IMG/VR virus record: IMGVR_UViG_3300013126_000023
Coordinates: 6,862 to 70,861 of that record
Reading direction: 5' to 3' (one strand)
Source of the DNA: a virus
DNA length: 64,000 nucleotides
The notes beneath the pieces were generated by a model that did not search any database, had not been told where the DNA came from, and worked only from the letters and a program-made list of their open reading frames with translations. Made by a program: the position numbers and the translations under genes. Positions 1,460 to 54,870 of this stretch are shown one piece after another (position 1 is the first letter of the stretch; every line of letters starts with the position of its first letter).

Positions 1460-1462
1460 TAT

Positions 1463-12900: not shown

Positions 12901-15137
12901 TCCTGACCAACTAAACCTGCTAATACTCTAGCATTTGAGAAATATAGATAATTGGGATTTTCTACCACATTTGCTGTGGTTAAATCTGAGACATTTGCTT
13001 TAACGTTTAATAAACTAATTACATTAGAATATACTCTAGCGTTAGTGTAGTATAAATTTGTACCTTCAGATAAATTAGAAGTACTTAAATTAGACAAACT
13101 TAATACTAAATTAGCAAGATTAGATGTATTCGCAAAATTTGCTGTGTCTGCAGAACCACCAGACAAATCACTAGACGGTGCCCATTTACTACCATCCCAT
13201 TTCAATACTTGTCCTGTACTAACACCTGTAGTATCTACATCTGCTAATACATTTACGCTCATTAAAGAAACGTTGGATAGTACTCTTGAATTAGTATAAT
13301 ATAAACTAGTACCTTCGACAACATTACTTGTGGTTAAATCAGAAACATTTGCTTTGGCGTTTAGTAAACTAATTACATTAGAATAAACTCTAGCGTTAGT
13401 ATAGTAAAGATTAACACCTTCAGCTAAATTGGATGTAGTTTGATTACTTAACGATACAACTAAATTAGCAAGATTAGATGTGTTGGCAAAATTTGCTGTA
13501 GTGGATGACGCAGCAGAAATAGTATTAGGTACCCAATTAGTACCATTCCATGCAAGTACTTGGCCAGATGCAACACCAGTAGTATCAACATCTGCCAGAG
13601 CATTTACGCTCAATAATGCTATATTAGAAAGTACTCTAGCATTCGTGTAATATAGATTGTTTAATTCTGTTACATTTGCTGTAGTAAGATCACTTACATT
13701 AGCTTTCGCATTTAATAAACTAATTACATTAGAATAAACTCTAGCGTTAGTATAGTATAAATTTGTACCTTCAGATAAATTAGAAGTACTTAAATTATTA
13801 AGTGACAATACGAGATTAGCTAAATTTGCCGTATTGGCAAAATTAGAAACATCAGCAGCGCCGCCTGACAAATCAGTTGCAGGCGCCCATTTACTACCAT
13901 CCCATTTTAATACTTGTCCAGATGAAACACCAGTAGTATCAACATCAGCTAATGCGTTTACACTTAATAATGCGATGTTGGATAATACTCTAGCATTACT
14001 AAAATATAGATTTGTACCCTCAGCAAGATTTGATGTGGTTTGATTACTTAACGATACAACTAAATTAGCAAGATTAGATGTGTTAGCAAAATTAGATATA
14101 TCAGCAGCACCGCCGGACAAATCATTAGACGGTGCCCATTTACTACCGTCCCATTTTAACACTTGACCGGATGAAACACCTGTAGTATCTACATCTGCTA
14201 ATACATTAATACTTAGTAATGAAACATTAGATAAAACTCTAGTGTTAGTGTAGTATAGATTAGTATTTTCTGTTAGATTGGCTGTAGTAAAATTACTTAA
14301 TGTATATACAATATTAGCAGCATCAGCAATATTTGCTGACGTTGCAGTAGTTGCTACAACGGCGGTGCTAGGATACCAATACAAACCATTGTATCGTAGA
14401 TAATCACCAGAATTAGCGCCGGTAGTATTTACATCAGCTAGTACATTAATATTGGAAGTACTTAATCTTGCATCTACTCTAGTATTAGTAAAATATAGAT
14501 TAGCACCCTCTGATAAATTAGAAGTACTTAAATTTGATAAGCTAATAACTAAATTAGCTAGATTTGATGTATTGGCAAAATTAGCTGTATTGGCAAAATT
14601 TGAAGAAGTAGCAAAAGTTGCAATACCTGCAGTAATAGAATTAGGTACCCAATTAGAACCATTCCATTCTAAAACTTGCCCTGTAGTTACACCTGTCGTG
14701 TTTACATCTACCAAAGCATTAATACTAGTTGTTGCTATTCTTGCATCAACTCTAGTATTAGTAAAATATAAATTATTGCCTTCTGCTAAATTAGAAGTAG
14801 TATGATTAGATAATCTGACTACTATGTTTGATACATTTGAATAATTGGCATTACCAGCATTATTAGCATAACCCGAAACTAAGGCAGGTGTTACTAGCCC
14901 TAAAACAATATTGGCTATGTTGGAATTTTCAGACGCAGACACAAGGATGGAACCGGGTACCCAATTGGTTCCATCCCATAGTAAGGTATTATTTACCGAA
15001 GCTGGTGTTGTACTAGTATCTACATCTTTAAGACTATCTACTGATATATTAGATAAAGAATTAGCAGATATAGAATTAGAAGTTAGAACATTGCCTGATC
15101 CAATAAATCCAGCAGATATTCTTGCAATAGATGCCAT
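6963..15137 (-). CDS. Long repetitive tail fibre protein
   Basis: 2724 aa, N/T/S/V-rich, about 40 copies (hand count) of TxxxxExxNLYYTNARV plus L.DVDTTG...GQVLxWxGxxW fibre motifs; TATAAATA late promoter upstream. Confidence 0.85.
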   Translation of the reverse strand: MASIARISAGFIGSGNVLTSNSISANSLSNISVDSLKDVDTSTTPASVNNTLLWDGTNWVPGSILVSASENSNIANIVLGLVTPALVSGYANNAGNANYSNVSNIVVRLSNHTTSNLAEGNNLYFTNTRVDARIATTSINALVDVNTTGVTTGQVLEWNGSNWVPNSITAGIATFATSSNFANTANFANTSNLANLVISLSNLSTSNLSEGANLYFTNTRVDARLSTSNINVLADVNTTGANSGDYLRYNGLYWYPSTAVVATTATSANIADAANIVYTLSNFTTANLTENTNLYYTNTRVLSNVSLLSINVLADVDTTGVSSGQVLKWDGSKWAPSNDLSGGAADISNFANTSNLANLVVSLSNQTTSNLAEGTNLYFSNARVLSNIALLSVNALADVDTTGVSSGQVLKWDGSKWAPATDLSGGAADVSNFANTANLANLVLSLNNLSTSNLSEGTNLYYTNARVYSNVISLLNAKANVSDLTTANVTELNNLYYTNARVLSNIALLSVNALADVDTTGVASGQVLAWNGTNWVPNTISAASSTTANFANTSNLANLVVSLSNQTTSNLAEGVNLYYTNARVYSNVISLLNAKANVSDLTTSNVVEGTSLYYTNSRVLSNVSLMSVNVLADVDTTGVSTGQVLKWDGSKWAPSSDLSGGSADTANFANTSNLANLVLSLSNLSTSNLSEGTNLYYTNARVYSNVISLLNVKANVSDLTTANVVENPNYLYFSNARVLAGLVGQDVVVDDLTIQGDLTVNGNVTTFNTATLIVEDKNILIANGASSPAVADGAGITIQGANANITYVFSTDRISFNKALDINGALVLTSASTSTTTIPEGSNLYYSNARVYANIAPLLTTSNIIELNNLYYTNARVYSNVIGLLNAKANVVDLTTSNVAEGSSLYYTNARVYANVSPLLTTANVTEITNLYYTNARVKSYLEVLDGNIIPATDVAYNLGSNSKRWKDLYLSGNTIFLGETLLQSSPNGLSVVSANIFTLIGNSISVDTVVSNSWGKLYSDNVIEGSKLFYSNARVYANIAPLLTTSNIAELNNLYYTNARVYSNVVGPLATKANVVDLTTANVIESASNLYYTNARVHANISPLLTTANISEVGNNLYYTNARARTAVSAGDITIIYDPVAGTIRANTVALGANVTSVNNLQGAVSLSTGEIPEGSNLYYTNARVLSNVTLMSINVLADVDTTGVSSGQVLAWNGSSWVPNTISTSSSDVANFSNTSNLANLVLSLANFTTANLAEGTNLYYTNARVYSNVISLLNAKANVVDLNTNNVLEGLNLYYTNARVVAGLVGQDVVLDDLIVQGNLTVNGNVVSLSVGTLLVEDKLIEIANGASSAAVADGAGISIQGANANITYVFSTDRISFNKNIDINGNILLSNTSSTTNLPEGTNLYYTNARVYSNVISLLNAKANVRDLTTSNVTELTNLYYTNVRVYSNVVSALATYSGNLTAGNVITDVVKGSFSNTTIQAGNYNFIFNDSGNLLVANGISTYSISSNVWNNIYTTNVIEGTNLYYTNARVYSNVISLLNAKANVVDLTTANVVELTNLYYTNARVYSNVISLLNNKANVVDLTTSNVIEGANLYFTNARVRLAISAFDNTIVYDSTNGTIRANTVALGANVLSVNGQTGVVNLSTFDIPENANLYYTNARVYSNVIGLLDAKANVVDLTSANVVELNNLYYTNARVYSNVIGLLDAKANVVDLTTSNVAEGTSLYYTNARVRSTLTSGNGISYDNVTGNITLSPTGVTPLVYGGATKIPVISVDSYGRITSASNVSVAGVSSFTSSGNSFTISTADGNSFVANIQENSVRLGTDTTGAYVSNVIAGLGIVITNQGGETATPTISAAQDIATNASPSFFNLTVSGNLTVVGNTTVITSNTLTINDPLIYLAGNNYSSDAVDIGFVGNYFDGLNQRHAGLFRDASDGGVFKLFANLNPEPSNVIDTANNSFRYANLIVDYLTGTVIGTVSSIGNHTTTSLAEGSNLYYTNARVYSNVIGLLNTKANVIDLTTSNVVELNNLYYTNARVLSNIALLSVNALADVDTTGATAGQVLKWSGSAWIASQDVVGTANVSVNSNIANLVVSLSNHTTSNLAEGTNLYYTNARAILAAIPAVTQLVVTTPVFNYNIDQYSGDNPTIYVNAGETISFDLNQGSSHPFALRISNGGSNYNTGLTHVDDDGTISTGASAQGKYTGELFWKIPYELAGNTYVYQCTNHSSMVGNIVIQKSISLLSTSDVTEGTNLYYTNARVYSAVTGNLVLKSNVSDLTTANVVELTNLYYTNARVYSNVITLLNAKANVVDLTSANVVELNNLYYTNARVYSNVIGLLNTKANVADLTTSNVSEGTNLYYTNARVYSALTGNLALKANVVDLTTANVIELTNLYYTNARVYSNVIGLLNAKANVVDLTTSNVIEGTSLYYTNARVISGVTTANIANLTITGNVRVGNILASQFYWANGDIFTSGGGGGGAVSSVNGLTGAVVLTTANVSESAVSGNLYYTNSRVRSAISVTGAGSYDSSTGVITITGTGTSVSVSKYTFTSTLNQTVFTGADDNGATLTLADPDKAHVFLNGILLTRTSDYTSNVGNVVFTAGVAANNLVTVIDSLVTVGNVASINKYFYTATAGQTVFSGSDTNGRTLNIQSPSDSYVYLNGVLLVPTTDYTIGTTTVTLNDAAVADDILIVVDALVKTTSNIIYSTKARTYAFTRIF

Positions 15138-15167: not shown

Positions 15168-15175
15168 TATTTATA
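15168..15175 (-). promoter_or_regulatory. T4-type late promoter TATAAATA
   Basis: Exact gp55 consensus, 30 nt upstream of the long fibre gene. Confidence 0.75.
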
Positions 15176-19072: not shown

Positions 19073-21675
19073 TATAAACCTTTACTCTTTACTAATAAAT
19101 CCAATTCTTTTACTGCTTCTATTAGAAGTGCTACTAATTTTTCATACTTGACGGTTTTATAATTTTGACCGCTCTTAGAATACTCATGCCCAGAACCTTG
19201 AACACCTATATCAAATGGTGCAGGTACAACAATTTCTGGTAGTACTTTTTCTACTTCTTGAGCTATCACACCTATTTCAATCCTATTAGTATCATATCCA
19301 TAACTACCCGCTACTTCATTTGCCATAAACGATACACCAGATAATTGCCTAATTTTGCCCAAAGCATTAACAATAGGTGTGATATTAGTTTTTAATCTTT
19401 CATCAGAATAATATGCGGTTACATCACCCGTAGCTCTAATGTCCCCACCAGAACCACTAGCTGGAGTACCTACTCCCAAACTATTCAAAGTTAAATCTGA
19501 TGGTATGGTTGCTGGACCAGGGCCGCCTTGAGGTCCAGTTGCACCTTGAGGTCCAGTTGCGCCGCCGGGACCGGTAGCACCGCCGGGACCAGGACTACCC
19601 TGTGGACCAGGACTTCCTCCAGGTCCAGTTAGACCTTGTGGTCCCGTTAGACCTTGTGGTCCCGTTAGACCTTGTGGTCCAGGAACGAAACCTGCTGGAC
19701 CAGGATTACCCTGTGGACCAGTTAATCCTTGTGGACCTGGATTTCCTCCAGGTCCAGTTGCGCCTTGAGTACCAGTAGGTCCAGTTGCGCCTTGAGTACC
19801 AGTTAATCCTTGTGGACCTGGATTTCCTCCAGGTCCAGTTGCGCCTTGAGTACCAGTAGGTCCAGTTGCGCCTTGTGGACCAGTTAATCCTTGTGGACCA
19901 GTTAATCCTTGTGGACCAGTTGCACCGCCAGGGCCAGTAGCACCACCGGGTCCGGGATTACCTTGAGGTCCGGTTGCACCACCAGGGCCAGTAGCACCGC
20001 TGGGACCAGGATTACCTTGAGGTCCGGTTGCGCCGCCGGGACCGGTAGCACCGCCGGGACCTGTAGAACCTTGTGGGCCTGCAGGACCAGTATTACCTTG
20101 AGGTCCAGTTGCACCACCAGGGCCAGTAGAACCTTGAGTACCAGTAGGTCCAGTAGATCCTTGTGGACCGTTGGCCCCCTGAGGACCAGGTAAACCTTGG
20201 GAACCTGTACTGCCCCCCGCTCCTTGCGATCCTTGAGGGCCAGATGGACCTGTTGCTCCTTGAGGCCCTGTTAGTCCCTGAGAACCTGGGCTACCTTGAG
20301 GGCCGGCATTACCTCCAGGACCTTGAGAACCCGTTGGTCCGGTAGATCCTTGTGGACCAGTTGTGCCCTGTGGACCCGTATTGCCTGCAGGTCCTGGACT
20401 ACCTTGAGGACCAGTGTTGCCGCCTGGTCCAGTATTGCCCTGAGGACCTGGGTTACCATTGGGACCTTGAGAACCCGTTGGTCCGGTAGATCCTTGTGGA
20501 CCAGTTGTGCCCTGTGGACCAGGAGCAGATGAACCAGGTGGACCTTGAGTTCCTGTAGATCCCTGCGAACCTGATGGACCCTGCGATCCTTGAGGACCAG
20601 TTGCACCTTGTGGACCAGAGCCACCTGCACCTTGAGGTCCTTGATTACCGACATTTCCTTGTGATCCTTGTACACCCACTAAACCTTGTGGACCAGTTGC
20701 ACCTTGTGGCCCAGTTAATCCTTGAACACCTTGATGACCCTGGGCACCTTGCGCACCAGTTACACCTTGGAAACCTTGTACACCAGTAGTACCCTGAGCA
20801 CCCTGAGGCCCTGAAGGTCCAGAAGCACCCTGGGGGCCTGTTGCGCCTTGTGGTCCAGTTACACCTTGAGTTCCTGTTGCGCCTTGTGGACCAGCTCCGC
20901 CTGCGCCTTGTGGGCCTTGATTGCCTATATTACCTTGAGGACCAGTATCTCCTTGAGGACCAGTATCTCCTTGAGGACCAGAACCACCTGCACCTTGTGG
21001 ACCTTGATTACCTACATTGCCTTGAGTTCCTGTTGCACCTTGAGGTCCAGTTGATCCTTGGACCCCCTGAGGACCAGAAGCACCTTGAGGACCTGTGATA
21101 CCTACAGTTCCTGCTGTACCGCCTGCTCCCTGAGTGCCCTGTGAACCTTGTGCTCCTTGGGCTCCTTGGGCACCTTGTGTACCTTGAGTTCCTGCAGCAC
21201 CCTGTGCACCGGTGGAACCTACTCCAACAATAATTCTAGTTATATGCAGAGAACCAAATTCTAATCCCAAATTTAAAGTGAGAGTATTATTTGTTGCGGT
21301 ATAATCTATAGTAGGATATATGGTTATACCATTTATATCCACTAAAATATTATTAGGATTCGTTAATGAAAGTGTATTATTGTTGTCATCTGGACCGGTA
21401 AAAACTGTTTGTCCAACAGTTGTACCGCTAGTAGCATTGCCTACTGTATAAACATAACTAGTAAAAGTAGTGGCGCCACCGCCACCCTCTATGCTAGTTA
21501 AAACATTACTCCAATATCTTGAACCATCTACATTAGCTAATAATACAAATCCATTACCTTGAGGTATACCTAAACTTGGTTCAGCCTCTTCCAGAGATAG
21601 GAAAGTGTATCGAGAGCTCGATACATTTGCCGCAGGAGTAAGTTTTACTTTATTACTTAGGCGCTTTAATGACAT
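19072..21675 (-). CDS. Collagen triple-helix fibre with C-terminal intramolecular chaperone (peptidase S74)
   Basis: About 570 aa of G-X-Y (GPQ, GAT, GST, GNP), then [11 protein letters not shown]...[13 protein letters not shown]...[16 protein letters not shown]. Confidence 0.92.
19720..19873. repeat. 81-bp-period tandem duplication inside the collagen gene
   Basis: agttaatccttgtggacctggatttcctccaggtccagttgcgccttgagtaccagtaggtccagttgcgccttg starts at both 19720 and 19801. Confidence 0.85.
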
Positions 21676-22023
21676 TTAGATCAAGCTTGTTTCTAGTAAA
21701 CTAAGTGTAATTTTAAGATTTGAATTCGCACCAGCATAAGCCATTACAGAAGCGTTCGCTTCTAATACTAATTTACCCGTTAAAACCGATGCCGCGTCTT
21801 GTCTTCCCATAGGAAAATTTCTAACTAATTCAGTTACAACGGTTCCTGTATTAGATAAATGCGCAAAAGTTACATTAGAGTCATAATCATCTCTTATATT
21901 AGCAACCTGAGCCATTAAAACGATAGTAGCAGTTTCTTCTGGAGTAGTATATAATATGCCTACATTTGCAAAAAGAGGTGATGTTATGGTTTTGAACGTA
22001 TTTAATGGAACTAAGGTTGCCAT
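21676..22023 (-). CDS. Small virion protein, putative adaptor
   Basis: 115 aa, LYTTP...TIVL..QVAN...GKLVLE...LKITLSLLE; similar size and pattern to 6591..6950. Confidence 0.6.
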   Translation of the reverse strand: MATLVPLNTFKTITSPLFANVGILYTTPEETATIVLMAQVANIRDDYDSNVTFAHLSNTGTVVTELVRNFPMGRQDAASVLTGKLVLEANASVMAYAGANSNLKITLSLLETSLI

Positions 22024-43925: not shown

Positions 43926-44726
43926 TTATAAAATAACCTGCCAAGGTTTTCTAGTTTCTACTGGGCAGATTTTGCCATCATATACTAATCTTTCAGTATT
44001 TCTTATATAATGATGTAAATAAAAACTAGTTTCTTCTGTTGGTAATGTTTCAACAAGACATCTCATAGATGATTCCATTAAATGTATTTGTTTTGCATTT
44101 TGTAAAAGTATACCATAATTAAATATATTTTCGCTAGTATCATTATAAATGATTTTTAGGTCACCTGTCAACTCTTGAATTTTCCTCATATCAAATTTGA
44201 ACCCTCTGCGAGGATCATCCTGTACAAAGGCATAATCCTCATTAGTAGCATTTAATTTATTAAATACTCTAGTTTCTTCTGGAATATCTCGATGATAGTA
44301 TGAGGACATGAATCTATGAGACCAATCTATTTCCATAAATTCATAGTAGTTTCTATGCCCATATGAATATTGATCTTTAAGTTCTGCCCATGATACTTGA
44401 TAATATTTCATATCCTTCGTCACTAGATCATCAAAAGGTTGTCCGGGTAAAACGGTATGACCAAGTAAATACCATGCTGCAGGTTTGATCGCACTTACTA
44501 AATGTCTAATCTGATGATACTCAGAACCCGAATCAATTGGGACTACTTGAATTCTTGAATCGTCTCTAAACATATGTTTGACTGCGGGGGCATAGTGTCT
44601 CCATGCCCCTACATAAACACCATCTAATTCGTGATCTATTAGTAATCGACGTATCATACCATTATATGATATGTGATCCCCTAGCCCTAACATATGTACT
44701 ATGAAACCAATATTTTTCTCACTCAT
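43926..44726 (-). CDS. Putative glycosyltransferase-like protein
   Basis: N-terminal HMLGLGDHI and C-terminal AKQIHLMESS resemble GT-B (GT9-like) motifs. Confidence 0.4.
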   Translation of the reverse strand: MSEKNIGFIVHMLGLGDHISYNGMIRRLLIDHELDGVYVGAWRHYAPAVKHMFRDDSRIQVVPIDSGSEYHQIRHLVSAIKPAAWYLLGHTVLPGQPFDDLVTKDMKYYQVSWAELKDQYSYGHRNYYEFMEIDWSHRFMSSYYHRDIPEETRVFNKLNATNEDYAFVQDDPRRGFKFDMRKIQELTGDLKIIYNDTSENIFNYGILLQNAKQIHLMESSMRCLVETLPTEETSFYLHHYIRNTERLVYDGKICPVETRKPWQVIL

Positions 44727-47218
44727 GCAAATAATCCTTCCAATGTAGCTTTAGGTTTAGCGTTCCACCCTATGCCATTTAATATAGTTGTTAAAGGTTC
44801 AAGAAAGGATTTCTCGAACATGGTTTGATAATCTACGTAAACTTTTAATTTTAATTCTTCAGGGATTGTGGATACAAACGCTATACAATTTTCACCTATG
44901 ATATTAGGTTCTTTTAAGTATAGAAATTTTATCTTGTCTCCCTCTCTAATCAATTCATATTTTTTCTCTAATTTGCCCTGCTTTAGATAATGATTATACA
45001 GTAAGGCACCTCGAACATGCATAGGAGTTCCTTGCCTATAGATATTAGCTCTATCAGAATATTTATCCAAGCCATTAACCGACCTAGGAAATGCGATCTC
45101 CTCAGCTTTTAAATTTTTATATTCTTCTTCAAACTCTCTAATATATTTTTGAATATGTGCCTCGGATTTAGTTAATGCTAAATTTACCGCATGTCTAAGA
45201 GCATCCCTAATCGGTTCAGGAGTAGATGATCTAACTATCTCTAATCCCATTACCTTTAATTTAGGCTCCTTATATTGTACGCCCTCATTATTATAAACAT
45301 TTAGAGCATACCTTTTTTTCGCCACCCAAATGCCTCTGTCGGCAATAACTTCACGTTTAAAATATACTTTTCGTTGAAAGGCGTTGGTATAAGACATGAG
45401 TTGATCGCATGCCTTATTGATTGCAGTTTCTATTTTATCTTGACAAATCTTATCAAGTATTTCTACGATTTTATCCTTAGGTAAATCTTTGTAGAATTTT
45501 TGTACTAAGGGATCCAACGTAATATAACATGCATCAGTGTCAGAATAAAAAGAATACTCATAATCATTAGTACCACAAATCTTATTAAGGTATTCATTTA
45601 AAGCTTTACCGACAGTACGAATAATATATTGTCCTGTAATCGTAATTCCCTCTGCTATCTTATCATCATAGAATCTAAAAAACTCATTGCCCCATGCGCC
45701 AAAGAGGGAATTCAGTTGAATTTTTCTAGCCATCTGAAAATTATTATATTTTGCAATATCTTTTTGATAATTTTTATCCTTAGTGTCCTCATATTTCTTT
45801 TGAGCGGTAATCATTAATTTTTTATATTTCTGTCGATCATCAAATAATTTTTGGACAATTTCCGGGAAAATGCCTTGTTTATTATTTTTAAAGAAATAGC
45901 CATTGCCGGTCATACAATAGTTTTCATCTTGTAAATCATCTAGATTAAATTTCTTATCAATTAATCTAGCAACAGTTACATCTAATGATTTTCCTACCAC
46001 CATTGTTTCTGGAGATAAATTATATTGCATAATGATACTAGGATATAGGCTTGTGGCATCAAACGATACTACCCAATCATATTTTCCTGGAACAGGTTCC
46101 TGTACATATGCGCCTTCAATCGTTCTACCTCTTTTAGTATCATCCCTCTGATGTACGACAATATTTTTGTCCCATAAATGATTCCATAAAATACAATCCC
46201 ATGTTCTAACTGCAGAAAATACATCTACAAAATTACATTTAGCATCATATGCCATCGTTAAAATCAACTCAATTAATTTCATTTTATCTTCAAGTTGATC
46301 TACTAGTTCAACGTCTACTACGTTATATTCTACAAATTTTTGCCAATTGTTCTTATAGAACATTCTAAAAGAATCATACTCTGCATATGATAATTTTTCT
46401 TTACCCAATTCGACCTTAGCAATGTGATCTAATTTATATGATTCTTGAGCGGTATAAGTAAACTTTTTATATAAATCCAAATAGTCTAGTACTGCTATAC
46501 CTGCAATATCAAAAACAATTTCTATATTTTTAAATCTTGTAATTTCACGTTGATTGACAATTCTCCAGGGAGAAAGATCTTTCATAGAATCTTCGCCTAG
46601 TACTTTTTTAATACGATTACAAAGATACGGTATATCAAAAAATTCTATGTTCCAACCTGTAATGATATGTGGATAATCAGAGGAAGTATATTCAATAAAT
46701 TTCTTTAACAAATCATATTCATCTTTACATTTAATAAATTTATGATTGGGTTTTATCTCATCGCAATTTTTACCGCCCCATGAAATTATTTCTTTAGTGT
46801 TGAAATCTTGTATAGTGATAAGTAACAATTCTTCTAAGGGATCATTAACATCAGGAAATCCATATTCTGCAGATGTCTCGATATCTATTGTCCAGATTTT
46901 TATTTTGCTTATATCAAAATCTATTTCACCTGGGAATGATTTTGTAATGTATTGATAAGCAAAATTTGTATTACCAAAAATAGGAAAGTCTTGAACATCC
47001 TTGTATCTTTTTACAAAATCTTTTGCCTCATAAATGGATTCAAACTCTATTCTTTCCAAATTTTCGCCATATAGAGATTTAAAAATGGATTGTTTGGGAG
47101 ATCTTACAAACAAAGAAGGGGAGAAATCTATTTTTTCCTGTACTATTTTACAATTATTGATCCCACGAACCAAAATTTTATTGCCATATTGTAACACATT
47201 AGTATAAAAGCGCATCAA
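44723..47218 (-). CDS. 43: Family B DNA polymerase (T4 gp43)
   Basis: DIET, GWN...FD, YN..DV exonuclease motifs; SFDATSLYPSII, KIQLNSLFG, YSDTD, KKRY polymerase motifs. No intein or intron seen; the start may be the ATG at 47215. Confidence 0.98.
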   Translation of the reverse strand: MMRFYTNVLQYGNKILVRGINNCKIVQEKIDFSPSLFVRSPKQSIFKSLYGENLERIEFESIYEAKDFVKRYKDVQDFPIFGNTNFAYQYITKSFPGEIDFDISKIKIWTIDIETSAEYGFPDVNDPLEELLLITIQDFNTKEIISWGGKNCDEIKPNHKFIKCKDEYDLLKKFIEYTSSDYPHIITGWNIEFFDIPYLCNRIKKVLGEDSMKDLSPWRIVNQREITRFKNIEIVFDIAGIAVLDYLDLYKKFTYTAQESYKLDHIAKVELGKEKLSYAEYDSFRMFYKNNWQKFVEYNVVDVELVDQLEDKMKLIELILTMAYDAKCNFVDVFSAVRTWDCILWNHLWDKNIVVHQRDDTKRGRTIEGAYVQEPVPGKYDWVVSFDATSLYPSIIMQYNLSPETMVVGKSLDVTVARLIDKKFNLDDLQDENYCMTGNGYFFKNNKQGIFPEIVQKLFDDRQKYKKLMITAQKKYEDTKDKNYQKDIAKYNNFQMARKIQLNSLFGAWGNEFFRFYDDKIAEGITITGQYIIRTVGKALNEYLNKICGTNDYEYSFYSDTDACYITLDPLVQKFYKDLPKDKIVEILDKICQDKIETAINKACDQLMSYTNAFQRKVYFKREVIADRGIWVAKKRYALNVYNNEGVQYKEPKLKVMGLEIVRSSTPEPIRDALRHAVNLALTKSEAHIQKYIREFEEEYKNLKAEEIAFPRSVNGLDKYSDRANIYRQGTPMHVRGALLYNHYLKQGKLEKKYELIREGDKIKFLYLKEPNIIGENCIAFVSTIPEELKLKVYVDYQTMFEKSFLEPLTTILNGIGWNAKPKATLEGLFA

Positions 47219-47238: not shown

Positions 47239-47267
47239 ATTATAAATAAATTAGCATAGAGAGTCAA
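47239..47267 (-). promoter_or_regulatory. sigma70-type promoter for gene 43
   Basis: TTGACT-N17-TATAAT. Confidence 0.75.
47241..47248 (+). promoter_or_regulatory. T4-type late promoter for the + strand island
   Basis: TATAAATA about 90 nt upstream of 47339. Confidence 0.55.
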
Positions 47268-47338: not shown

Positions 47339-48877
47339 ATGCGTGCAGTAAAAACTGCTTTGAGTTTATTCCTTGTTATGTTTCTAAGTACCGTTTTCGC
47401 TCAAAACACTAGTACTCAAAGTACAACCAACGGTGTAACTACCAATACCATCAATCCACTTAACCAGGGCGGTTATGACTCTAAAAGTTTGGTGGACACA
47501 AATTCCACATCTAATAGTACAAGCTCGGTTACAACCAACAACGTTTCTACTAGCACTAGCAATAATGTTAATACTAGTACTGTAAACAGCAATTCAACCA
47601 ACACTAATAATAACGTTAATACAAGTACAAGTACTTCTACCAACGTAAACACTAATAATAATGTTCAAAGTGGTACTGTGACCAATAACAATAATAACGT
47701 TATGAGTGGTACAGTAACATACAATAATAATAACGTAAACACAGGTACCCAAACCTTTAACAATAATAATGTAAGTACTTCTACAGCTACCAATAATAAC
47801 AATAATGTAAGTACTAGCACAAGTGCTTCTACCAATGTGAATACAAATAATAATATTAATACCGGTACTATGACGTATAACAATAATAATGCTTCGACTA
47901 GTACTAATGTGAATACAAATAATAACATTAATTCTGGTACTCAAACATTCAACAACAACAATGCAAGTACCAGCACTAGTACCAATACTAATACCAATAA
48001 TTCAACCAGCGTAAATACAAATAACAATATCAACACTGGTACTATGACTTATAATAACAACAATGCGTCAACAAGTACCAATACAAATGTGAACACTAAC
48101 AATAATATTAATACTGGCACAATGACGTATAATAACAACAATGCGTCAACTAGCAATAGTACAAGCACTAACTTAAATACAAATAATAATATCAATACTA
48201 ATTCAAGTACCAGTATGAATCAAAATATGAATTACAATGTTAGTGTTACTGACAATAAAAATACTAATGTTAGCAATAGCACATCAAATAATACCAACAT
48301 GAATATTCAAACTGGTGATATGACTAATAGAAATATTAATACGACTACAGCAACAACTAATAATGTTAACGTAAATCAAAGTTCAAGTTATAGTAACAGC
48401 AATAGTAATAGTACACAAGTTGTTAACACAGATAACTTAAATAAAAATATTAATGAAACCACAATTACGCAACGTGTCATTCAGCCTCCTCCAACTGCTA
48501 TTGCTCCTGCAATGATGTCTGGCGGCGGGAATGACTTGTGTTCAACGGGACAATCTGGTGCAGTACAGACTCAGATGTTTGGCATGGCATTAGGTAGCAC
48601 ACAAAGAGATTTAAATTGTGAACGCTTAAAATTATCCAAGACTCTTTTCGATATGGGTATGAAGGTTGCGGCAGTTGCTACCATGTGTCAAGATAGAAGA
48701 GTCTGGGAATCAATGATGGCTGCTGGCACTCCTTGCCCATATGAAGGTAACATTGGAGACAAGGCAAGAGAACTTTGGGCAGCAAATCCACATAAGATTC
48801 CAAAATACGATTATGTGACAGCATCAGAAGTTGACAAGAAAGAAACTCCTAAATTTCATACTAGCAGCTTTAGATGA
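47339..48877 (+). CDS. Secreted Asn/Thr/Ser-repeat protein with Cys-containing C-terminal domain
   Basis: Signal peptide ending VFA-Q; repeats such as NNNNASTSTNVNTNNNINTGTMTY; C-terminal PPPTAIAP...DLC...CERLKL...MCQD...GTPCP. Confidence 0.8.
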   Translation: MRAVKTALSLFLVMFLSTVFAQNTSTQSTTNGVTTNTINPLNQGGYDSKSLVDTNSTSNSTSSVTTNNVSTSTSNNVNTSTVNSNSTNTNNNVNTSTSTSTNVNTNNNVQSGTVTNNNNNVMSGTVTYNNNNVNTGTQTFNNNNVSTSTATNNNNNVSTSTSASTNVNTNNNINTGTMTYNNNNASTSTNVNTNNNINSGTQTFNNNNASTSTSTNTNTNNSTSVNTNNNINTGTMTYNNNNASTSTNTNVNTNNNINTGTMTYNNNNASTSNSTSTNLNTNNNINTNSSTSMNQNMNYNVSVTDNKNTNVSNSTSNNTNMNIQTGDMTNRNINTTTATTNNVNVNQSSSYSNSNSNSTQVVNTDNLNKNINETTITQRVIQPPPTAIAPAMMSGGGNDLCSTGQSGAVQTQMFGMALGSTQRDLNCERLKLSKTLFDMGMKVAAVATMCQDRRVWESMMAAGTPCPYEGNIGDKARELWAANPHKIPKYDYVTASEVDKKETPKFHTSSFR

Positions 48878-51327
48878 ACGAAGAATTTAATCATAAGCAT
48901 TATAATTATAAATGGACAAAGGGCTTTTTGCTAGCCCTTTGTATTACTTTACTTTTGTTGTCGGGTGCAGTGCTGGCTCAAAATTCTCCCAATACACCAA
49001 GTGGATATAGTATAGATTCTACTACAGGAAATCTAATACAAAATCCCACCATGACATCTGGTACTGGCTGGACAACATCTGGTATGACTGGTTCATATAC
49101 ACCTGACGGTTATATTTTTAGTTATTCATCTGGCACTATAGAACAAAATGTAAATTTTAATGCAATAAATTTTGGTTATTTAACTAACAATGCCGTATAT
49201 GCAACTGGTATAATGTATGGATTTAAGTATAGATTTCAGTGTGCAAATCAAATAGGCGCTACTTGTGAAACAGGTACACTACAGGATACATTGAATGCTA
49301 CATTTACATACACTGCACCCAATGGAACCATAGAAACAACAAGTTCATACGGACTTGGATTAAAAAATATTAATGATGGTAATCCTGCATATAATCCTGT
49401 ATGGCAACAGTTAGCAGAAACATATACATTTACTGGCCCTAAGAATATGGCATCTGTAGGTTCAGCTAGATTAAGTATAACTGGTATGGATGCAGGGTTC
49501 TGGGCATGTAATCCTGACTGTTACGGTCCTCAGATTAAAGATGCATACATGAGATTAAACTATAGTGTTGATCCTTGCATTTTAAATCCTGCATTCAATT
49601 CTAACTGTCCTGGTTTTCAAAACGTATTGCAGGGATCTAAAAGTCCAACATTTTATTATAGCTATAACATTGCACAATCTTTACCACACATAGGTGGCGG
49701 TGTTGTACTTCATGGTTATGATTATGGGTTTAATTGGTATAACTATGGTGCTTGTTATAACACTTTTCTTTTCTGGTGTACAGATTGGAGAACAGATGGC
49801 GGCGGCAATATCAACTTTAGAATAAGTGATAAGAATAATACTACTATGCTTCAGAATCAGTGGTATGTTGGCGGTAATAATTCTGGCGGTAGTTACAGCA
49901 ATAGATTTTTATTTACAGAATCACGCAACAGTTTAGATATGGGATCAGTACAATGGTGGGCAAGTGATGTATGGAATCACTTTGGTTGGGTAGGTTGGAC
50001 TAGACCTATATGGACACCTGATCCTTGTTACACAAATGGATTATACAGTCCAAACTGTAGTAACTTTAAAGATACATTGAATCAAGTATTAGCAGACGTT
50101 AAAGCACAACAAGAAAAAATTGCTGCTTTATCACCAAATATATCTAGTACAAGCTCAACACCAAGTGGTTCAATTACTGTTACGATATCTGATGCTACTA
50201 CAACTAGCCCATCAGTAACAGTTAATACTACAATGGATCAGAATAGTTTTGTTTCAACAAATAGAAACATTGCTATTTCAGCCAATCAAAATCCCCAAGA
50301 CCTAGCTGCTTCTGTCATAGGTCGTAATGCTGCTAATAATGCTAGAGTAAATGCCATAGCACAAAGAGCAATGGCAGATGCAAATAATATAGCGAGTGCA
50401 TCTACTAGAGAAGCAGAACAAATTGCTGATAATCTAACTAATTCAAGTATCGTATCAAGTATGGATGCTTTAAAAGAAACAGATCAGGCATCTAGTACAA
50501 TAACTATAGGCAGAGTATCACAAACTAATATTACTAGCACTGTACAACATATTGCACAAGCAGCACCACAAGTAACACCGCAACAAAAACAAGAACAAGT
50601 GCAACAAGCAACTTCTGTGACAGCCATAACTATAGAATCGGCGGCACAATTGCTTATGCCTAATGCAGCATTTAGATCTATGGAAATCTCAGTATCTATT
50701 CCAAGTTTACCCCCTGTGAATAATACTGCAAGACTACAGGAAGAAAAACAAGAATTAATTTTTAAAGAACAAGAGCAAACACAAGTTACTAGTATTCAAC
50801 CAATTCCAAGTCCAGACCAAAATGTTTTTGTATCTCCCATCAATGTAACAAGTATACCATTACAAGCTTCTCAATCAAATATGGAAGTATTATCGCAACC
50901 ATCAAGTCAAACGCTTGATACAAATATTCAACAAATAGTAGTACAAGAACCTAGAAGAGAAATAGTAACAGAAGTAGAACAACCTCAGCAGGCTAGAAAT
51001 TTTACTACTGATAAAACTAATCCTATTAATGACATTATAGAGAATAGAACACAAGTAGTAGAGCAACGAACCGAGCAACCTTTATTATCATCAGTTAATC
51101 GTAATGCACAGAATAACGAAGTAGCTGGTGGTGTTGACATTAATAATTTAGCAGTGCTTCCAGTAGGATTTAGTGCCTACAATATTGCATTAAAGGATGT
51201 GGCATTTTATGCGCCAAAGGAAATTTATCGTAATCAAAAGACCGTAGACAATGTTAGAGCATTAAGATCGTTGGCAAGTGATAGACTTCACCAAGAGATG
51301 GTGGATCAACAATACTTACCGAGGTAA
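48874..51327 (+). CDS. Secreted protein with two Cys-containing beta domains and a Q/S/T-rich stalk
   Basis: Signal peptide ending VLA-Q; repeated DPC..N...S.NC motif; ATGA-coupled to the upstream gene. Confidence 0.75.
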   Translation: MNEEFNHKHYNYKWTKGFLLALCITLLLLSGAVLAQNSPNTPSGYSIDSTTGNLIQNPTMTSGTGWTTSGMTGSYTPDGYIFSYSSGTIEQNVNFNAINFGYLTNNAVYATGIMYGFKYRFQCANQIGATCETGTLQDTLNATFTYTAPNGTIETTSSYGLGLKNINDGNPAYNPVWQQLAETYTFTGPKNMASVGSARLSITGMDAGFWACNPDCYGPQIKDAYMRLNYSVDPCILNPAFNSNCPGFQNVLQGSKSPTFYYSYNIAQSLPHIGGGVVLHGYDYGFNWYNYGACYNTFLFWCTDWRTDGGGNINFRISDKNNTTMLQNQWYVGGNNSGGSYSNRFLFTESRNSLDMGSVQWWASDVWNHFGWVGWTRPIWTPDPCYTNGLYSPNCSNFKDTLNQVLADVKAQQEKIAALSPNISSTSSTPSGSITVTISDATTTSPSVTVNTTMDQNSFVSTNRNIAISANQNPQDLAASVIGRNAANNARVNAIAQRAMADANNIASASTREAEQIADNLTNSSIVSSMDALKETDQASSTITIGRVSQTNITSTVQHIAQAAPQVTPQQKQEQVQQATSVTAITIESAAQLLMPNAAFRSMEISVSIPSLPPVNNTARLQEEKQELIFKEQEQTQVTSIQPIPSPDQNVFVSPINVTSIPLQASQSNMEVLSQPSSQTLDTNIQQIVVQEPRREIVTEVEQPQQARNFTTDKTNPINDIIENRTQVVEQRTEQPLLSSVNRNAQNNEVAGGVDINNLAVLPVGFSAYNIALKDVAFYAPKEIYRNQKTVDNVRALRSLASDRLHQEMVDQQYLPR

Positions 51328-51329
51328 AA

Positions 51330-51983
51330 ATGTCCGAAGAAAAAGTAGATGTAAATAAAAAAATTGACGATGCCGAAGCGGCAATGAAAAAGTATGCTAG
51401 TAAAGATACTGTAATCAGCATCGGAGGTTATGAGTTTACACCCGCAAAGTTAATGGTAGCAGCTACACTAGTTAGTTCTGCATTAGGTGGATTATACGGT
51501 GTGTTTGAAGTATATAAAGATTATATGGGTATGAAGAAAAAAATTGCTGAGTATGTAGCACCAGATTTTTCAGAATTTGATAAGCGTCTAGCTGTAATAG
51601 AAGAAAATGCCAGCAAAACCGCTAAGGCAGTTCAAGAAGGATCTGATAAAACTGCAGAATATACTCGCGATATTAAAAATGATCTAAAGAACGATATTCG
51701 TCGTCTAGAGAAAACAGTTGAGGATGTAGAGCGCGGTAATAAGACTCAGCAACGTGAAATAGATCGTACAGTAGCAGAAGTAAAGACAGATGTTCGCAAT
51801 ATTCAAAAGCAAGCGGACGCTTCGATTAATGCTGCAACCAAAGAAATTAATCGTATGTCAGCAGAAAATTCAAAAGCAATTGCTGCTAACAATAAAGAGG
51901 TTGATGCTAAGTTAAAAGCATTAGACAAAAAGATCAATGAAGATTTAAAGAAAGCACTCGATAACCCATTGGCTAATAGGTGA
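51330..51983 (+). CDS. Single-TM protein with long coiled coil
   Basis: LMVAATLVSSALGGLYGVF TM segment followed by about 140 aa of heptad-like sequence. Confidence 0.75.
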   Translation: MSEEKVDVNKKIDDAEAAMKKYASKDTVISIGGYEFTPAKLMVAATLVSSALGGLYGVFEVYKDYMGMKKKIAEYVAPDFSEFDKRLAVIEENASKTAKAVQEGSDKTAEYTRDIKNDLKNDIRRLEKTVEDVERGNKTQQREIDRTVAEVKTDVRNIQKQADASINAATKEINRMSAENSKAIAANNKEVDAKLKALDKKINEDLKKALDNPLANR

Positions 51984-51986
51984 TAA

Positions 51987-52160
51987 ATGGAAACACTAGC
52001 AGATGCTTTAGGTAAGTTATGGTTCTTAGGAGCAGGCGTTGTTGCAATAGCAGCATACGCTGTCACATTGAAAACTAGATTAGATTATTTGGAAAAGAAC
52101 TATGACAAACAAATTACTGCACTATGGGATGCAGTAAACAAATTAAATAGAGACAAATAA
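51987..52160 (+). CDS. Small single-TM coiled-coil protein (57 aa)
   Basis: METLADALGKLWFLGAGVVAIAAYAVTLKTRLDYLEK...; below the ORF-track size cutoff. Confidence 0.7.
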   Translation: METLADALGKLWFLGAGVVAIAAYAVTLKTRLDYLEKNYDKQITALWDAVNKLNRDK

Positions 52161-53399
52161 TTATAATTTCATTCGATTGTCGTCTATAAATTTAATTTGA
52201 TCCACTAATGCATCTGCATCTGTTTTATAGTTATTGAAGTCTGCTTTACTTAGAGTCTTGTTAAGATCTTCTAACATCTTTTGTGCTTGGTGGTTGTGTT
52301 CTGCTCTAGCTGCATACAACCATCTAAAAGCATTTTTCTTATCATTTAACTTTAAATAAAATTCACCTAATTTAAGCATAGCGGAAACATTACGTTTCAT
52401 TGCTACTTCTTTAAGATCATCTAATATAGCATTCATTTCTGATTGACTACTTGTAGGATCATCAAATACCATAACTGCATATCTTTGCTGGGCCTTTTCG
52501 TCAATCTTACCAGCAGTCTTGACAAATTGAAAAGCTGAAGATTTATACCCAAATTTTTCTAATAGATCTGCTATTTGTAATAGTCTATCACTATCAAGTT
52601 TATAACAAAACTCTTTGAATATAGCATCAGCATAAGGTTTGAATTCATTGGGTATCAAGTCTTTCATGCCCATACTTACTAGTTCATCCAATGCTGCTTT
52701 GTCCTGTTTAGTAATTCTCCACATCAATATTCTTACTGCAGGTCCTAACTTATCATCTCGTTTAAAATTTTGAGCATCCGCCAATGATCTGTTTCTTGCA
52801 GCTGCATCATTGACAATAGCTGCTACTAGTTCTTTATGTGATTTAGTAGGAGCAGTTTGTGAGGATGTTTTAGGTGCCTTTGCAAGGTGCGGATTTGGTT
52901 CCGCTCCATCTATAACCACACTCCAAATTTCCATTGGAGAAACATTCTTAAATTCTTGTATGCCTCTACTAACAAATTTTAAATCTTTCAATTTACCAGC
53001 AACTAATTTATACACAGTGTCAGTCATAGTTACGCCACAATAGTCAGCAAGACTTTCTGTTCTAGCTGCTAAATTAACAGCATCTCCCATAAGATTACTG
53101 CCATATATCCATACTTCACCCATATGCATTCCTATACGCCAACGCATACCATTTTTTAATTTTTTTATTCTAGCTTGCATTTCTATGGCAAATTTAACAG
53201 CATCAACAGCACTGGAAAATTCAACCAATATGCTATCGCCCCCAGTATTAAACAAACGTCCTTTACTAGAATCTATTAATGGATCGATAACGGCGCGGCA
53301 GGCATCTAGTTTTAGTAGGGTGCCTTCTTCGTCCTGTTGCATTGATGCGCTATAACCAATAACGTCACTGCAAATAATAGTAGCTAATTTAGTTTCCAT
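52161..53399 (-). CDS. Class III nucleotide (adenylate/guanylate-type) cyclase with C-terminal TPR/Sel1-like helices
   Basis: SDVIGYS, GGDS, RIGMH.GEV, GDAVNLAAR.ES, FKN; C-terminal AMLKLGEFY...AFRWLY.A. Confidence 0.88.
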   Translation of the reverse strand: METKLATIICSDVIGYSASMQQDEEGTLLKLDACRAVIDPLIDSSKGRLFNTGGDSILVEFSSAVDAVKFAIEMQARIKKLKNGMRWRIGMHMGEVWIYGSNLMGDAVNLAARTESLADYCGVTMTDTVYKLVAGKLKDLKFVSRGIQEFKNVSPMEIWSVVIDGAEPNPHLAKAPKTSSQTAPTKSHKELVAAIVNDAAARNRSLADAQNFKRDDKLGPAVRILMWRITKQDKAALDELVSMGMKDLIPNEFKPYADAIFKEFCYKLDSDRLLQIADLLEKFGYKSSAFQFVKTAGKIDEKAQQRYAVMVFDDPTSSQSEMNAILDDLKEVAMKRNVSAMLKLGEFYLKLNDKKNAFRWLYAARAEHNHQAQKMLEDLNKTLSKADFNNYKTDADALVDQIKFIDDNRMKL

Positions 53400-53434: not shown

Positions 53435-53968
53435 ATGAGTGAAGTTAAACAAGAAGTTAAACCTTTATCAAGAAGTGAGCGTGAAGCCAAAATAAAAGAT
53501 AAGGCTGGGTTTATAATTGTATTTTTAGCAGCAGTTTTAGCAATAAACACTATGCTTGGCGGCAGTAATAGTAGCAAGATACAGAACAATACTATTCAAG
53601 CAAATAATATGTGGGCTTGGTACCAAGCCAAAAATGTACGAGGCGTTCTGTATGAGATTAGTGCCGCTGAAGCCAACAAACCAGAAAATGCTGAAAAATT
53701 TCTTGCCGAAGCTAAACGTATGAGTGATGACAAGAAAGAAATCATGGAGAAGGCAAAAGTCTTAGAAGCAGAAAGAGATGCTGCTAAATTAAAGTCTCCT
53801 TGGTTTACCTGGGGCGGTAGTGTTTTACAAATAGCAATCGTTCTTTTAACTGCTAGTATTCTTGCAGTAAGTATGCCAATGTTTTACATTAGCACAATAG
53901 TTGGAGCCGTAGGTTCTTTTCTAGTTAGCCAAGCAATATGGATGTGGATCCCATGGTTAAGTGTTTAA
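53435..53968 (+). CDS. DUF4337-like membrane protein
   Basis: TM, then ANNMWAWYQAKNVR, coiled coil, LQIAIVL..ASIL and two TMs; GGAG RBS. Confidence 0.75.
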   Translation: MSEVKQEVKPLSRSEREAKIKDKAGFIIVFLAAVLAINTMLGGSNSSKIQNNTIQANNMWAWYQAKNVRGVLYEISAAEANKPENAEKFLAEAKRMSDDKKEIMEKAKVLEAERDAAKLKSPWFTWGGSVLQIAIVLLTASILAVSMPMFYISTIVGAVGSFLVSQAIWMWIPWLSV

Positions 53969-54141
53969 TAGGATTAAGTTTTTTACTTATTGCTGGGTGT
54001 GGAGATTTTTACAGATACCCGTGTCAAAATCCAGATAATTGGGAAAAAGATATTTGTAAAAAACCCTATTGCGAAATAAATCGTTCATGTCCAGAACATA
54101 TCTTTAAGGAAGATTTAAAAGATAAGGAATGTAAAAAATGA
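53953..54141 (+). CDS. Small Cys-rich lipoprotein
   Basis: MVKCLIGLSFLLIAG-C lipobox, then YRYPCQNP.NW...CKKP.C...R.CP. Confidence 0.7.
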   Translation: MVKCLIGLSFLLIAGCGDFYRYPCQNPDNWEKDICKKPYCEINRSCPEHIFKEDLKDKECKK

Positions 54142-54530
54142 AGGAAATGTTTGATAAACTTATAGGACAGGAAGGAGATAAACCTTCAGCGTCCGATAAA
54201 TCCGAAAAACGTAGTAAACCAGGTGAAAGATATACAGAAAATGAGCTCATGGTTCGACTTAAGTTTATTATTGGTTGCTGCTTGGCTTTCACTCTTATTG
54301 GAATTGTATTTACCGTTCTTTATTCTATTATGTTTGTTACCCAACCTCTTAATGCAATCAGTCCGATCGATCAGAAATTTTTTGAATTGATTATACCTGT
54401 TGCCACATTTCTTTGTGGTACATTATCGGGTATTATGTTAGCAGGTACAGGGAAGGAAGCGGCGATGGCTGGTGCAGCAGCTCAAAGGCAGGCTGACAAA
54501 GAAAAGAAAGATGAAACTAAATCGTCTTGA
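54138..54530 (+). CDS. Two-TM membrane protein
   Basis: Two hydrophobic segments flanking QPLNAISPIDQKFFE; ATGA-coupled to the lipoprotein gene. Confidence 0.75.
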   Translation: MKEMFDKLIGQEGDKPSASDKSEKRSKPGERYTENELMVRLKFIIGCCLAFTLIGIVFTVLYSIMFVTQPLNAISPIDQKFFELIIPVATFLCGTLSGIMLAGTGKEAAMAGAAAQRQADKEKKDETKSS

Positions 54531-54604: not shown

Positions 54605-54679
54605 TGGAAGCGGGGGTTGGAATCGCACCAACGTCCTCTGGATTATGAGTCCAGCGTTCTACTTCTGAACTACCCCGCA
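54605..54679 (-). tRNA. tRNA-Met(CAT), initiator-like but atypical
   Basis: TGCGGGG...CTGGA-CTCATAA-TCCAG...GTTGG-TGCGATT-CCAAC-CCCCGCT-T-CCA; 1:72 mismatch; CCA encoded. Confidence 0.85.
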
Positions 54680-54697
54680 TTTGATCTATTATTTATA

Positions 54698-54776
<79 letters not shown>

Positions 54777-54779
54777 ATC

Positions 54780-54870
54780 TGGTGCCCAAGGCCGGAATCG
54801 AACCGGCACGCCCCTTTCGGAAAGCGAGAGATTTTAAGTCTCTTGTGTCTACCTGTTTCACCACTCGGGC
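54780..54870 (-). tRNA. tRNA-Leu(TAA)
   Basis: GCCCGAGTGGTGAAA..GGTAGACAC-AAGAGA-CTTAAAA-TCTCT, long variable arm, GGTTCGATTCC, ACCA. Confidence 0.93.

Follow-up and report, generated by a model that had tools for sequence, protein, structure and literature searches.

Breaking the last layer of the host cell envelope is a step that phages carry out with spanins. Two-component spanins include Rz/Rz1 of lambda and PseT.3/PseT.2 of T4, and T1 gp11 is a unimolecular spanin. T4 also encodes the class III holin T, a protein of 218 aa with a single transmembrane (TM) segment, its N-terminus inside and a large periplasmic part, to which the antiholin RI binds. In this study, we analyzed three adjacent genes, here called A, B and C, that lie together with a small fourth gene, D, in a 64,000-nucleotide (nt) stretch of viral DNA (the window; positions 6,862 to 70,861 of IMG/VR record IMGVR_UViG_3300013126_000023), and compared their products with these systems. 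The 70.9 kb record, of which the window is a part, has an estimated completeness of 43% and comes from a T4-like water phage.

Lysis proteins of other kinds have also been described. According to the corresponding reports, the disruptin gp28 of phage phiKT is an extra lysis factor beyond holin, endolysin and spanin (10.1101/515445), and LysZ of corynephages and mycobacteriophages is a lysis membrane protein tied to membrane-anchored glycopolymers (10.1101/2025.06.24.661397). As described there, these proteins are a precedent for lineage-specific lysis-cassette proteins directed against a further envelope layer, to which A-B-C, with its lectin-like protein B, may be likened. Their hosts and envelope types differ, however; the likeness is one of description and homology is not expected. 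In another report, lysis open reading frames (ORFs) were identified in several pelagiphage groups, and the main-text passages on them do not name the A-B-C genes (10.1101/2019.12.14.876532). No paper describing the trio was found in searches of the open-access and bioRxiv literature, supplementary files excluded.

Organization and conservation of the module

A first-pass annotation of the window had described four closely coupled plus-strand genes in a mostly minus-strand background, with export signals, an Asn/Thr/Ser repeat, Cys-containing domains and a TATAAATA box. All of these are present, the structural description is accurate, and the four ORFs lie tightly packed at exactly the coordinates then given, 47339-52160 (Table 1). 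A and B overlap by 4 nt (ATGA), B and C are separated by 2 nt, and C and D by 3 nt. Every ORF of at least 100 aa in positions 1-47218 is on the minus strand or is a shadow ORF. The plus-strand run is not confined to A-D, as three more plus-strand genes (53435-54530) follow a minus-strand cyclase gene. Signal peptides of all proteins discussed here were predicted from hydropathy and A-x-A-like sites alone.

Searches of Pfam, NCBIfam and PHROG returned nothing meaningful for A, B, C or D. Together with the PDB searches described below, this bears out the earlier statement that these exported and membrane proteins belong to no characterized family.

In a scan of IMG/VR baited with B, 36 viral loci were recovered, whose members were called by hidden Markov models (HMMs) from our own alignments. 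A was present in 34 of these loci and C in all 36. The order A-B-C on one strand was seen in 34, and the two exceptions are cut by a contig end. When the Cys domain of A was used as bait against one genome per prokaryote species, 47 loci were found, all in metagenome-assembled or single-cell genomes whose taxonomy is mutually inconsistent; these loci are therefore read as binned phage contigs. An A ORF was present in 45 of them, and 28 had at least 3 kb of downstream sequence. Among these 28, the HMM placed C after A on the same strand in 22; the number rises to 26 if a TM segment plus an Asn-Pro-Leu end is also taken as C. Between A and C lies a single large B-like gene in some loci and a group of about four smaller genes in others; the first gene of such a group retains the conserved B tail. 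A, B and C are thus conserved as a unit. The four-gene operon proposed in the first-pass annotation holds for these three genes but not for D, which was found in 8 of the 36 loci and adjoins the cyclase gene rather than C in L003, L004, L007 and L023. D is not part of the conserved core and travels with the neighboring cyclase gene in relatives.

The A domain was also searched by tblastn against 50,697 phage records and was found in 13: six from Pelagibacter phages (including the myovirus Mosig), two from Roseobacter phages, two from Ralstonia phage RSP15 (deposited twice) and three from uncultured phages. In the same collection, C was found in HTVC115P and B gave no match. Triplets resembling A-B-C occur in four Pelagibacter and Roseobacter phages (Table 1), and in RSP15 only A was found. 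As judged from these genomes, the trio is portable between unrelated phages of several architectures. Its relatives are unnamed, are called hypothetical proteins, or carry evidently spurious automatic labels. The public "lysozyme" annotation of CRP-810 gp51 (L040:5213-5635) was rejected as evidence for an enzyme; this protein is a C homologue with a TM segment and a coiled coil (HMM 9e-28), and the annotation looks wrong.

All three families, A, B and C, are very common in environmental sequence. Of 8000 scored candidates, 7999 were relatives of C, representing at least 7999 clusters at 90% identity. For the A domain, 590 of 653 candidates had E<=1e-3, and there were 1120 representative clusters (50% identity, E<=1e-3). 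Relatives of B numbered 212 of 7999 scored candidates. Since cultured Pelagibacter and Roseobacter phages carry the trio, it is amenable to bench study.

A separate observation concerns the relatives L002 and L004-L006. Their DNA polymerase is 55-56% identical to that of the window, whereas C is 92-93%, the cyclase 90-93% and A 76-79% identical. This pattern suggests that the polymerase was swapped or that the envelope block is mobile.

Lysis genes and a late-promoter-like box near the module

To characterize the surroundings of the module, we scanned 123 ORFs located within 3 kb of it in 21 diverse loci. Eight matched endolysin families (Glyco_hydro_19, three; Peptidase_M15_3, two; Phage_lysozyme, two; Glyco_hydro_108, one), and GTA_holin_3TM and Lipase_3 were matched by three each. 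Per-ORF scans placed a holin and/or endolysin gene 56-340 nt downstream of C in five loci (L045, L061, L062, L076 and L079) and 2.0-2.6 kb downstream in L046. Above family cut-offs, lysis genes therefore occur near the module in 6 of the 21 loci, a count that leaves out two endolysin-family ORFs not assigned to a locus; L049 adds one weak, sub-threshold match. The chance expectation is about 4-16% of loci, an estimate that assumes one endolysin per genome of 40-170 kb. In L062, A is followed by four small genes, C, a small EF-hand/TM gene, a holin and a GH19 endolysin. The next ORF after this endolysin has no TM segment or lipoprotein signal, and no spanin-like gene follows. HTVC202P likewise has an M15 endolysin and no annotated spanin.

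Two related loci have a class 3 lipase gene (PF01764) 150-290 nt after C, at L066:9533-10240 (2e-21) and L068:9708-10412 (3.5e-23). Such lipid-degrading enzymes next to the module could be part of envelope breakdown.

In the T4-like lineage, 164 ORFs lie within 3 kb of the module, and 150 of them, belonging to 25 of the 28 loci, were scanned. Matches included Hydrolase_2 and Glyco_hydro_19 (two each), and also DUF4337 (nine), cyclase (five), UvsX/RecA (five), nuclease (four) and porin (three). The three porin ORFs belong to the Gram-negative porin family Porin_4 (best 8.6e-27). Thus, the association between the module and lysis genes is real but partial, and comes mostly from lineages other than that of the window.

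The box upstream of A resembles a late promoter of the T4 type. Over the whole window, the octamer TATAAATA shows no enrichment, with 10 occurrences versus 16 expected. Among 26 related T4-like loci, 22 have the relaxed motif [ACT]TAAATA in the 150 nt upstream of A, versus 193 of 2855 background windows of 150 nt (6.8%). The exact octamer was found upstream of A in 5 of the 26, versus 26 of 2139 background windows of 200 nt. The A-B-C genes are, on this basis, probably under a late promoter.

Because the trio stands directly beside holin and endolysin genes in other lineages, we read A-B-C as a late, exported accessory of host lysis that would act on the envelope layers outside the inner membrane. 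We put this reading forward tentatively. Several rival explanations are discussed below with the proteins they concern, and the probability left after the lysis reading and these rivals goes to something else.

Protein C

The TM segment of C (residues 41-59) is Gly-rich, and the rest of the protein is charged and helix-like. Conservation is highest in this segment and in the residues next to it, where G53 and G57 are nearly invariant and F59 is invariant; an Ala-Pro-Asp motif immediately outside the membrane is also conserved. The charged helical stretch varies in length, and whole C proteins have 103 to 324 aa. All 38 aligned sequences, distant ones included, share an unchanged C-terminal Asn-Pro-Leu motif (residues 212-214). 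C contains no Cys. Family scans yielded only weak coiled-coil-type matches, and ESM Atlas returned only unnamed viral clusters for both C and the A domain. Weak PADLOC hits of C to ZorA models (best 2.6e-7, in their coiled-coil tail) were set aside as generic coiled-coil similarity.

C and D had been described earlier as TM-anchored coiled-coil proteins. The anchors stand, as each protein has one hydrophobic segment (residues 7-29 in D), the remainder of D being charged and helix-like as in C. The coiled coils are less certain, the matches of C being weak.

The topology of C resembles that of the T4 holin T, and candidate periplasmic partners are encoded alongside it. C could accordingly be a class III (T4 T-like) holin, with A and B as periplasmic regulators that bind it and set the timing of lysis in the manner of an antiholin. 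The size of C, 217 aa, its single TM segment and the conservation of the Gly-rich region around it agree with this. So does the result of a six-frame search for Phage_holin_T, which was silent in this record and four large relatives, although the control search was equally silent and four of these records are incomplete. On the other hand, the trio coexists with a GTA_holin_3TM holin next to an endolysin in L046, L061 and L062. C also differs from T in having no Cys and in its apparent shape, an extended helical rod instead of a globular periplasmic domain, and PF11031 did not match it at E<=0.1. We regard a holin role of C as rather improbable.

Protein A

Protein A starts with a hydrophobic segment (residues 3-22). 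In the spacer that follows, 72% of residues are Asn, Thr or Ser and 11 of 362 are charged; the underlying DNA repeats with periods of 36, 72, 78 and 192 nt. The Cys residues of the conserved domain (positions 401, 427, 450 and 466) are each at least 90% conserved. An AlphaFold2 model of this domain, built from 78 sequences (pLDDT 78.9), places the hairpin first and the helices after it. No sequence match to the domain was found in PDB at E<=10, either with the single sequence or with a 78-sequence profile, and Foldseek found no fold match in PDB at E<=0.001. The best Z in VIA-align against 48,161 chains was 2.5, and BFVD contained only uncharacterized phage proteins as matches. The lack of a fold match does not prove a new fold. 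A hydrophobic C-terminal tail, which A of the window phage lacks, is present in many relatives of A (46 of 83 in a first set, 19 of 82 in a second).

The repeat had led the first-pass annotation to propose that A is an amyloid subunit similar to curli CsgA or Pseudomonas FapC, which would be exported by partners and build a surface fiber or adhesin. A does share with these proteins a Sec signal and Asn-rich imperfect repeats, in its case a nearly uncharged stretch of about 360 aa with a periodicity of 12-26 residues. Within the A family, however, the repeat is optional, and the conserved core is the 4-Cys domain: the spacer between signal and domain has a median length of 23.5 aa and a maximum of 185 in 82 family representatives with an intact N-terminus, versus about 360 here. 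The beta-solenoid that had been raised as a question for A was not confidently predicted, the ESM Atlas model of whole A having a mean pLDDT of 0.46. The C-terminal tether of many relatives would not suit a secreted fiber subunit. In addition, Pfam families of the Curlin (Curlin_rpt), CsgG and FapF type did not match A, B, C, D or five neighbors at E<=0.1, and NCBIfam revealed no curli/Fap channel or nucleator (CsgG/CsgB, FapF/FapB) in the six proteins scanned. The module, unlike the curli and Fap systems, provides no nucleator, no chaperone and no outer-membrane channel, and nothing in it is able to carry a fiber across the outer membrane. The optional nature of the repeat, the low pLDDT, the tailed relatives and the missing partners together led us to drop the amyloid reading, which we consider very improbable.

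Protein B

Protein B has a hydrophobic segment at residues 14-38 and 10 Cys in close pairs between residues 123 and 395, several of which are conserved. For the whole AlphaFold2 model (74 sequences) the pLDDT is 61, and for much of residues 140-410 it exceeds 85. Two beta-sandwiches (about 60-235 and 260-385) come first, then a helix, a small beta unit and a long helix (474-532), beyond which the chain is Q/S/T-rich and of low confidence to the end. This agrees with the earlier description of a signal-peptide protein with two Cys-linked beta domains and a long Q/S/T stalk.

In this model, the first sandwich is a jelly-roll that can be superposed on solved carbohydrate-binding modules (CBMs) and lectins. 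With VIA-align, residues 55-232 matched the sugar-binding domain of Fbs1 (2e33_A; Z 13.3, root-mean-square deviation 2.6 A, 146 residues aligned), CBM61 (Z 10.5) and CBM16 (Z 9.8), and Foldseek ranked a CBM22 tandem first (1.7e-6). The likeness is one of fold; sequence identity is 9-16% and, unlike such modules, B has no attached catalytic domain. The same sandwich also resembles distal domains of phage tail proteins, namely CBA120 TSP4 (Z 9.9) and the Kp7 fiber (Z 9.2).

Variation in the module is concentrated in the N-terminal part of B, and in distant loci only the last 80-130 residues align. Although the tail contains nearly all invariant columns (Table 1), AlphaFold2 did not fold it confidently as a monomer, which suggests that it folds on a partner.

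These features bear on two further explanations. First, the module could serve superinfection exclusion or the masking of receptors or the cell surface. The lectin-like part of B would bind an envelope glycan used by phages, and the module would block competitors at adsorption or DNA entry, or prevent progeny from adhering to debris. The hypervariability of this part next to a conserved tail and a conserved C would be in keeping with an arms race over surface glycans; identity of B drops to 27-29%, or to a match of the tail only, where C stays at 55-93%. The resemblance to tailspike and tail-fiber distal domains points the same way. So does the position of the module next to the DNA polymerase gene and among accessory membrane-protein genes, the position held by imm in T4. 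Exclusion genes are usually lineage-specific, however, whereas the trio crosses phage architectures and hosts. The late-promoter-like motif upstream of A and the holin and endolysin genes directly beside the module in several lineages also speak for a different role. Moreover, when B was compared with the window phage's own ORFs by blastp, phmmer and HMM, it matched only itself, with no link to the tail fibers. On balance, we think exclusion unlikely; if it were the function, the system would be an unusually widespread one.

Second, B could be an adhesin or fiber-like component of the virion, and A and C helpers in its assembly. Apart from the fold of the first sandwich, this is favored by HTVC115P, in which the trio lies in the genome half carrying structural genes. 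A virion role is difficult to reconcile with the Sec-type signals and the conserved, periplasmic-style Cys pairs. In T4-like phages the trio is outside the structural block, and the PHROG structural families gave no match of meaningful score to A, B or C. We judge it improbable.

Comparison with spanins and a model for the proposed lysis accessory

Returning to the proposed lysis accessory, the trio may first be compared with the two-component spanins. C has the topology of an i-spanin, i.e., an N-terminal TM segment, a putative periplasmic helical rod and a conserved distal end, and it is by topology only that C compares with this class. The trio further resembles these spanins in being apparently late and envelope-directed, and in its place next to holin and endolysin genes in several lineages, with no evident spanin there. 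It differs in having three components, including the large lectin-like B, and no outer-membrane lipoprotein partner. No plausible o-spanin ORF was found in 47339-52160, where the sole lipobox pattern is in a 32-aa out-of-frame ORF inside B. In most of 54 loci scanned, there is no lipoprotein near the module. In the lineage of the window, the only o-spanin-like candidate nearby is the 67-aa lipoprotein at 53938-54141. Thus, the trio is spanin-like in topology and context but does not belong to the spanins, because it encodes no lipoprotein partner and has no family match.

The unimolecular spanin T1 gp11 offers another comparison. Many proteins of the A family combine, like gp11, an N-terminal export signal with a C-terminal anchor, such that one chain could reach from the inner membrane outwards. 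Unlike gp11, A is without a lipobox and carries a helical, disulfide-stapled domain that matches no known fold, and the window A lacks the C-terminal anchor; the lipoprotein signal and C-terminal TM segment that define a unimolecular spanin were not found in its chain.

Our model for the lysis accessory is as follows. The N-terminal signals and the conserved Cys residues, i.e., the four of A and several pairs of B, suggest that A and B are periplasmic. C would sit in the inner membrane with its N-terminus inside and extend a helical rod into the periplasm, ending in the Asn-Pro-Leu tail. A would be Sec-exported, and its disulfide-stapled domain, attached to an Asn/Thr/Ser spacer of free length, would stay near the inner membrane, anchored in many relatives by a C-terminal TM helix that the window phage has lost. 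B, also Sec-exported, would hold an envelope glycan (peptidoglycan or a lipopolysaccharide-linked sugar) with its hypervariable lectin-like sandwiches, and its conserved tail would join A and/or C. After the action of holin and endolysin, the A-B-C complex would then help to break the remaining envelope layer of the Gram-negative cell. The analysis shows the gene structure, the predicted export features and folds, the co-conservation and the lysis genes nearby in other lineages; the mutual binding of the three proteins, the ligand of B and the role in lysis are all inferred. A complex prediction with the A domain, the periplasmic part of C and the B tail gave a score of 0.00 (mark 0.32; controls not run), which weighs on neither side as to binding.

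A number of observations weigh against a lysis role. The usual neighbors of the module in the window's lineage are PolB, the cyclase, DUF4337, the small lipoprotein and other membrane proteins, not lysis genes. Phage_lysozyme was found in 2 of 32 records and in neither near the module, and the M15 endolysin of HTVC202P is about 20 kb from the trio. Even among the diverse loci, only about one third have lysis neighbors, and two of these, L061 and L062, are closely related. A spanin-type bridge would have no evident outer-membrane anchor, given that the module contains no outer-membrane lipoprotein. The spacer of A in the window phage is far longer than a periplasm-spanning element needs. Rz-like spanin families of PHROGs matched only 1 of 38 C homologues, weakly (E ~1e-3), and did not match C of the window. 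Finally, the lysis role is a proposal from sequence and structure models.

A bolder and more doubtful version is that A-B-C forms a new, lipoprotein-free class of envelope disruption, composed of the membrane-anchored rod C, the disulfide-stapled hairpin protein A and the glycan-binding arm B, which replaces spanins in a very large share of aquatic phages. If so, this class would include phages of SAR11, and SAR11 phage-host pairs are among the most abundant on Earth. A role in lysis would show how the outer layers of very abundant marine and freshwater bacteria are opened, a step that controls carbon release in the viral shunt, and would add to phage lysis a way past the outer membrane that needs no lipoprotein. 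Whether the module functions in lysis or in exclusion, the A domain is without a match among solved structures, and B is, as predicted, a naturally hypervariable glycan-binding scaffold.

Other features of the window

The coordinates of the module and its surroundings are given in Table 1. Besides DNA polymerase, the minus strand of the window encodes a DnaB-like helicase, tail-fiber proteins and virion proteins. The cyclase has a helical C-terminal extension of about 250 aa and is 66-93% conserved in eight related loci; PADLOC related it to PycC at E 0.003 only. The DUF4337 protein, the lipoprotein and the phrog_25359 protein recur together downstream of the module in 13-14 loci.

Table 1. 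Features of the window and A-B-C-like triplets in other phages
Feature	Position or gene numbers	Strand	Description
DNA polymerase	44723-47218	-	T4-type family B; phrog_262, E = 0
TATAAATA	47241..47248	+	T4-type late-promoter-like box, 91 nt before gene A ATG
Gene A	47339..48877	+	512 aa; signal-peptide-like N-terminus, N/T/S spacer, Pro-rich linker, conserved 4-Cys domain
A residues 22-383	47402..48487	+	Asn/Thr/Ser repeat spacer, from composition and tandem repeats; optional and of variable length in family
A residues 384-490	48488..48808	+	Conserved domain: beta-hairpin flanked by two Cys, 4-5 helices, two further Cys
Gene B	48874..51327	+	817 aa; signal-peptide-like N-terminus, two lectin/CBM-like beta-sandwiches, helical and disordered stalk, conserved C-terminal tail
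B residues 55-232	49036..49569	+	Beta-sandwich 1, carbohydrate-binding-module-like (VIA-align, Foldseek)
B residues 735-817	51076..51324	+	Conserved C-terminal tail; 13 of the 14 invariant columns of B
Gene C	51330..51983	+	217 aa; bitopic membrane protein, one TM segment, charged helical C-terminal part, Asn-Pro-Leu end
Gene D	51987..52160	+	57 aa; one TM segment and short helix; lineage-specific
Class III nucleotide cyclase	52161-53399	-	PF00211 2.2e-8; NCBIfam LipJ-type cyclase domain 4.2e-17
DUF4337 membrane protein	within 53435-54530	+	2e-30; first of three further envelope genes
Predicted lipoprotein	53938-54141	+	67 aa, Cys-rich; start overlaps DUF4337 stop
130-aa protein	within 53435-54530	+	2-3 TM segments; phrog_25359
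Three tRNA genes	54605-54870	-	Met-cat, Met-cat, Leu-taa; directly after envelope genes
A-B-C-like triplet, Pelagibacter phage HTVC115P	gp54/53/49		
A-B-C-like triplet, Pelagibacter phage HTVC202P	gp24/25/26		Annotation includes tape measure protein
A-B-C-like triplet, Pelagibacter myophage Mosig	202/201/200		
A-B-C-like triplet, Roseobacter phage CRP-810	gp53/52/51		

Two stretches of the window, 1-4000 and 20001-22000, have a GC content of 0.49-0.51, versus about 0.33 in the remainder. Both fall in tail-fiber genes, where collagen-like repeats and repeats of other families occur. One ORF of 2724 aa occupies 6963-15137 on the minus strand and is preceded by another copy of TATAAATA at 15168-15175 on the same strand.

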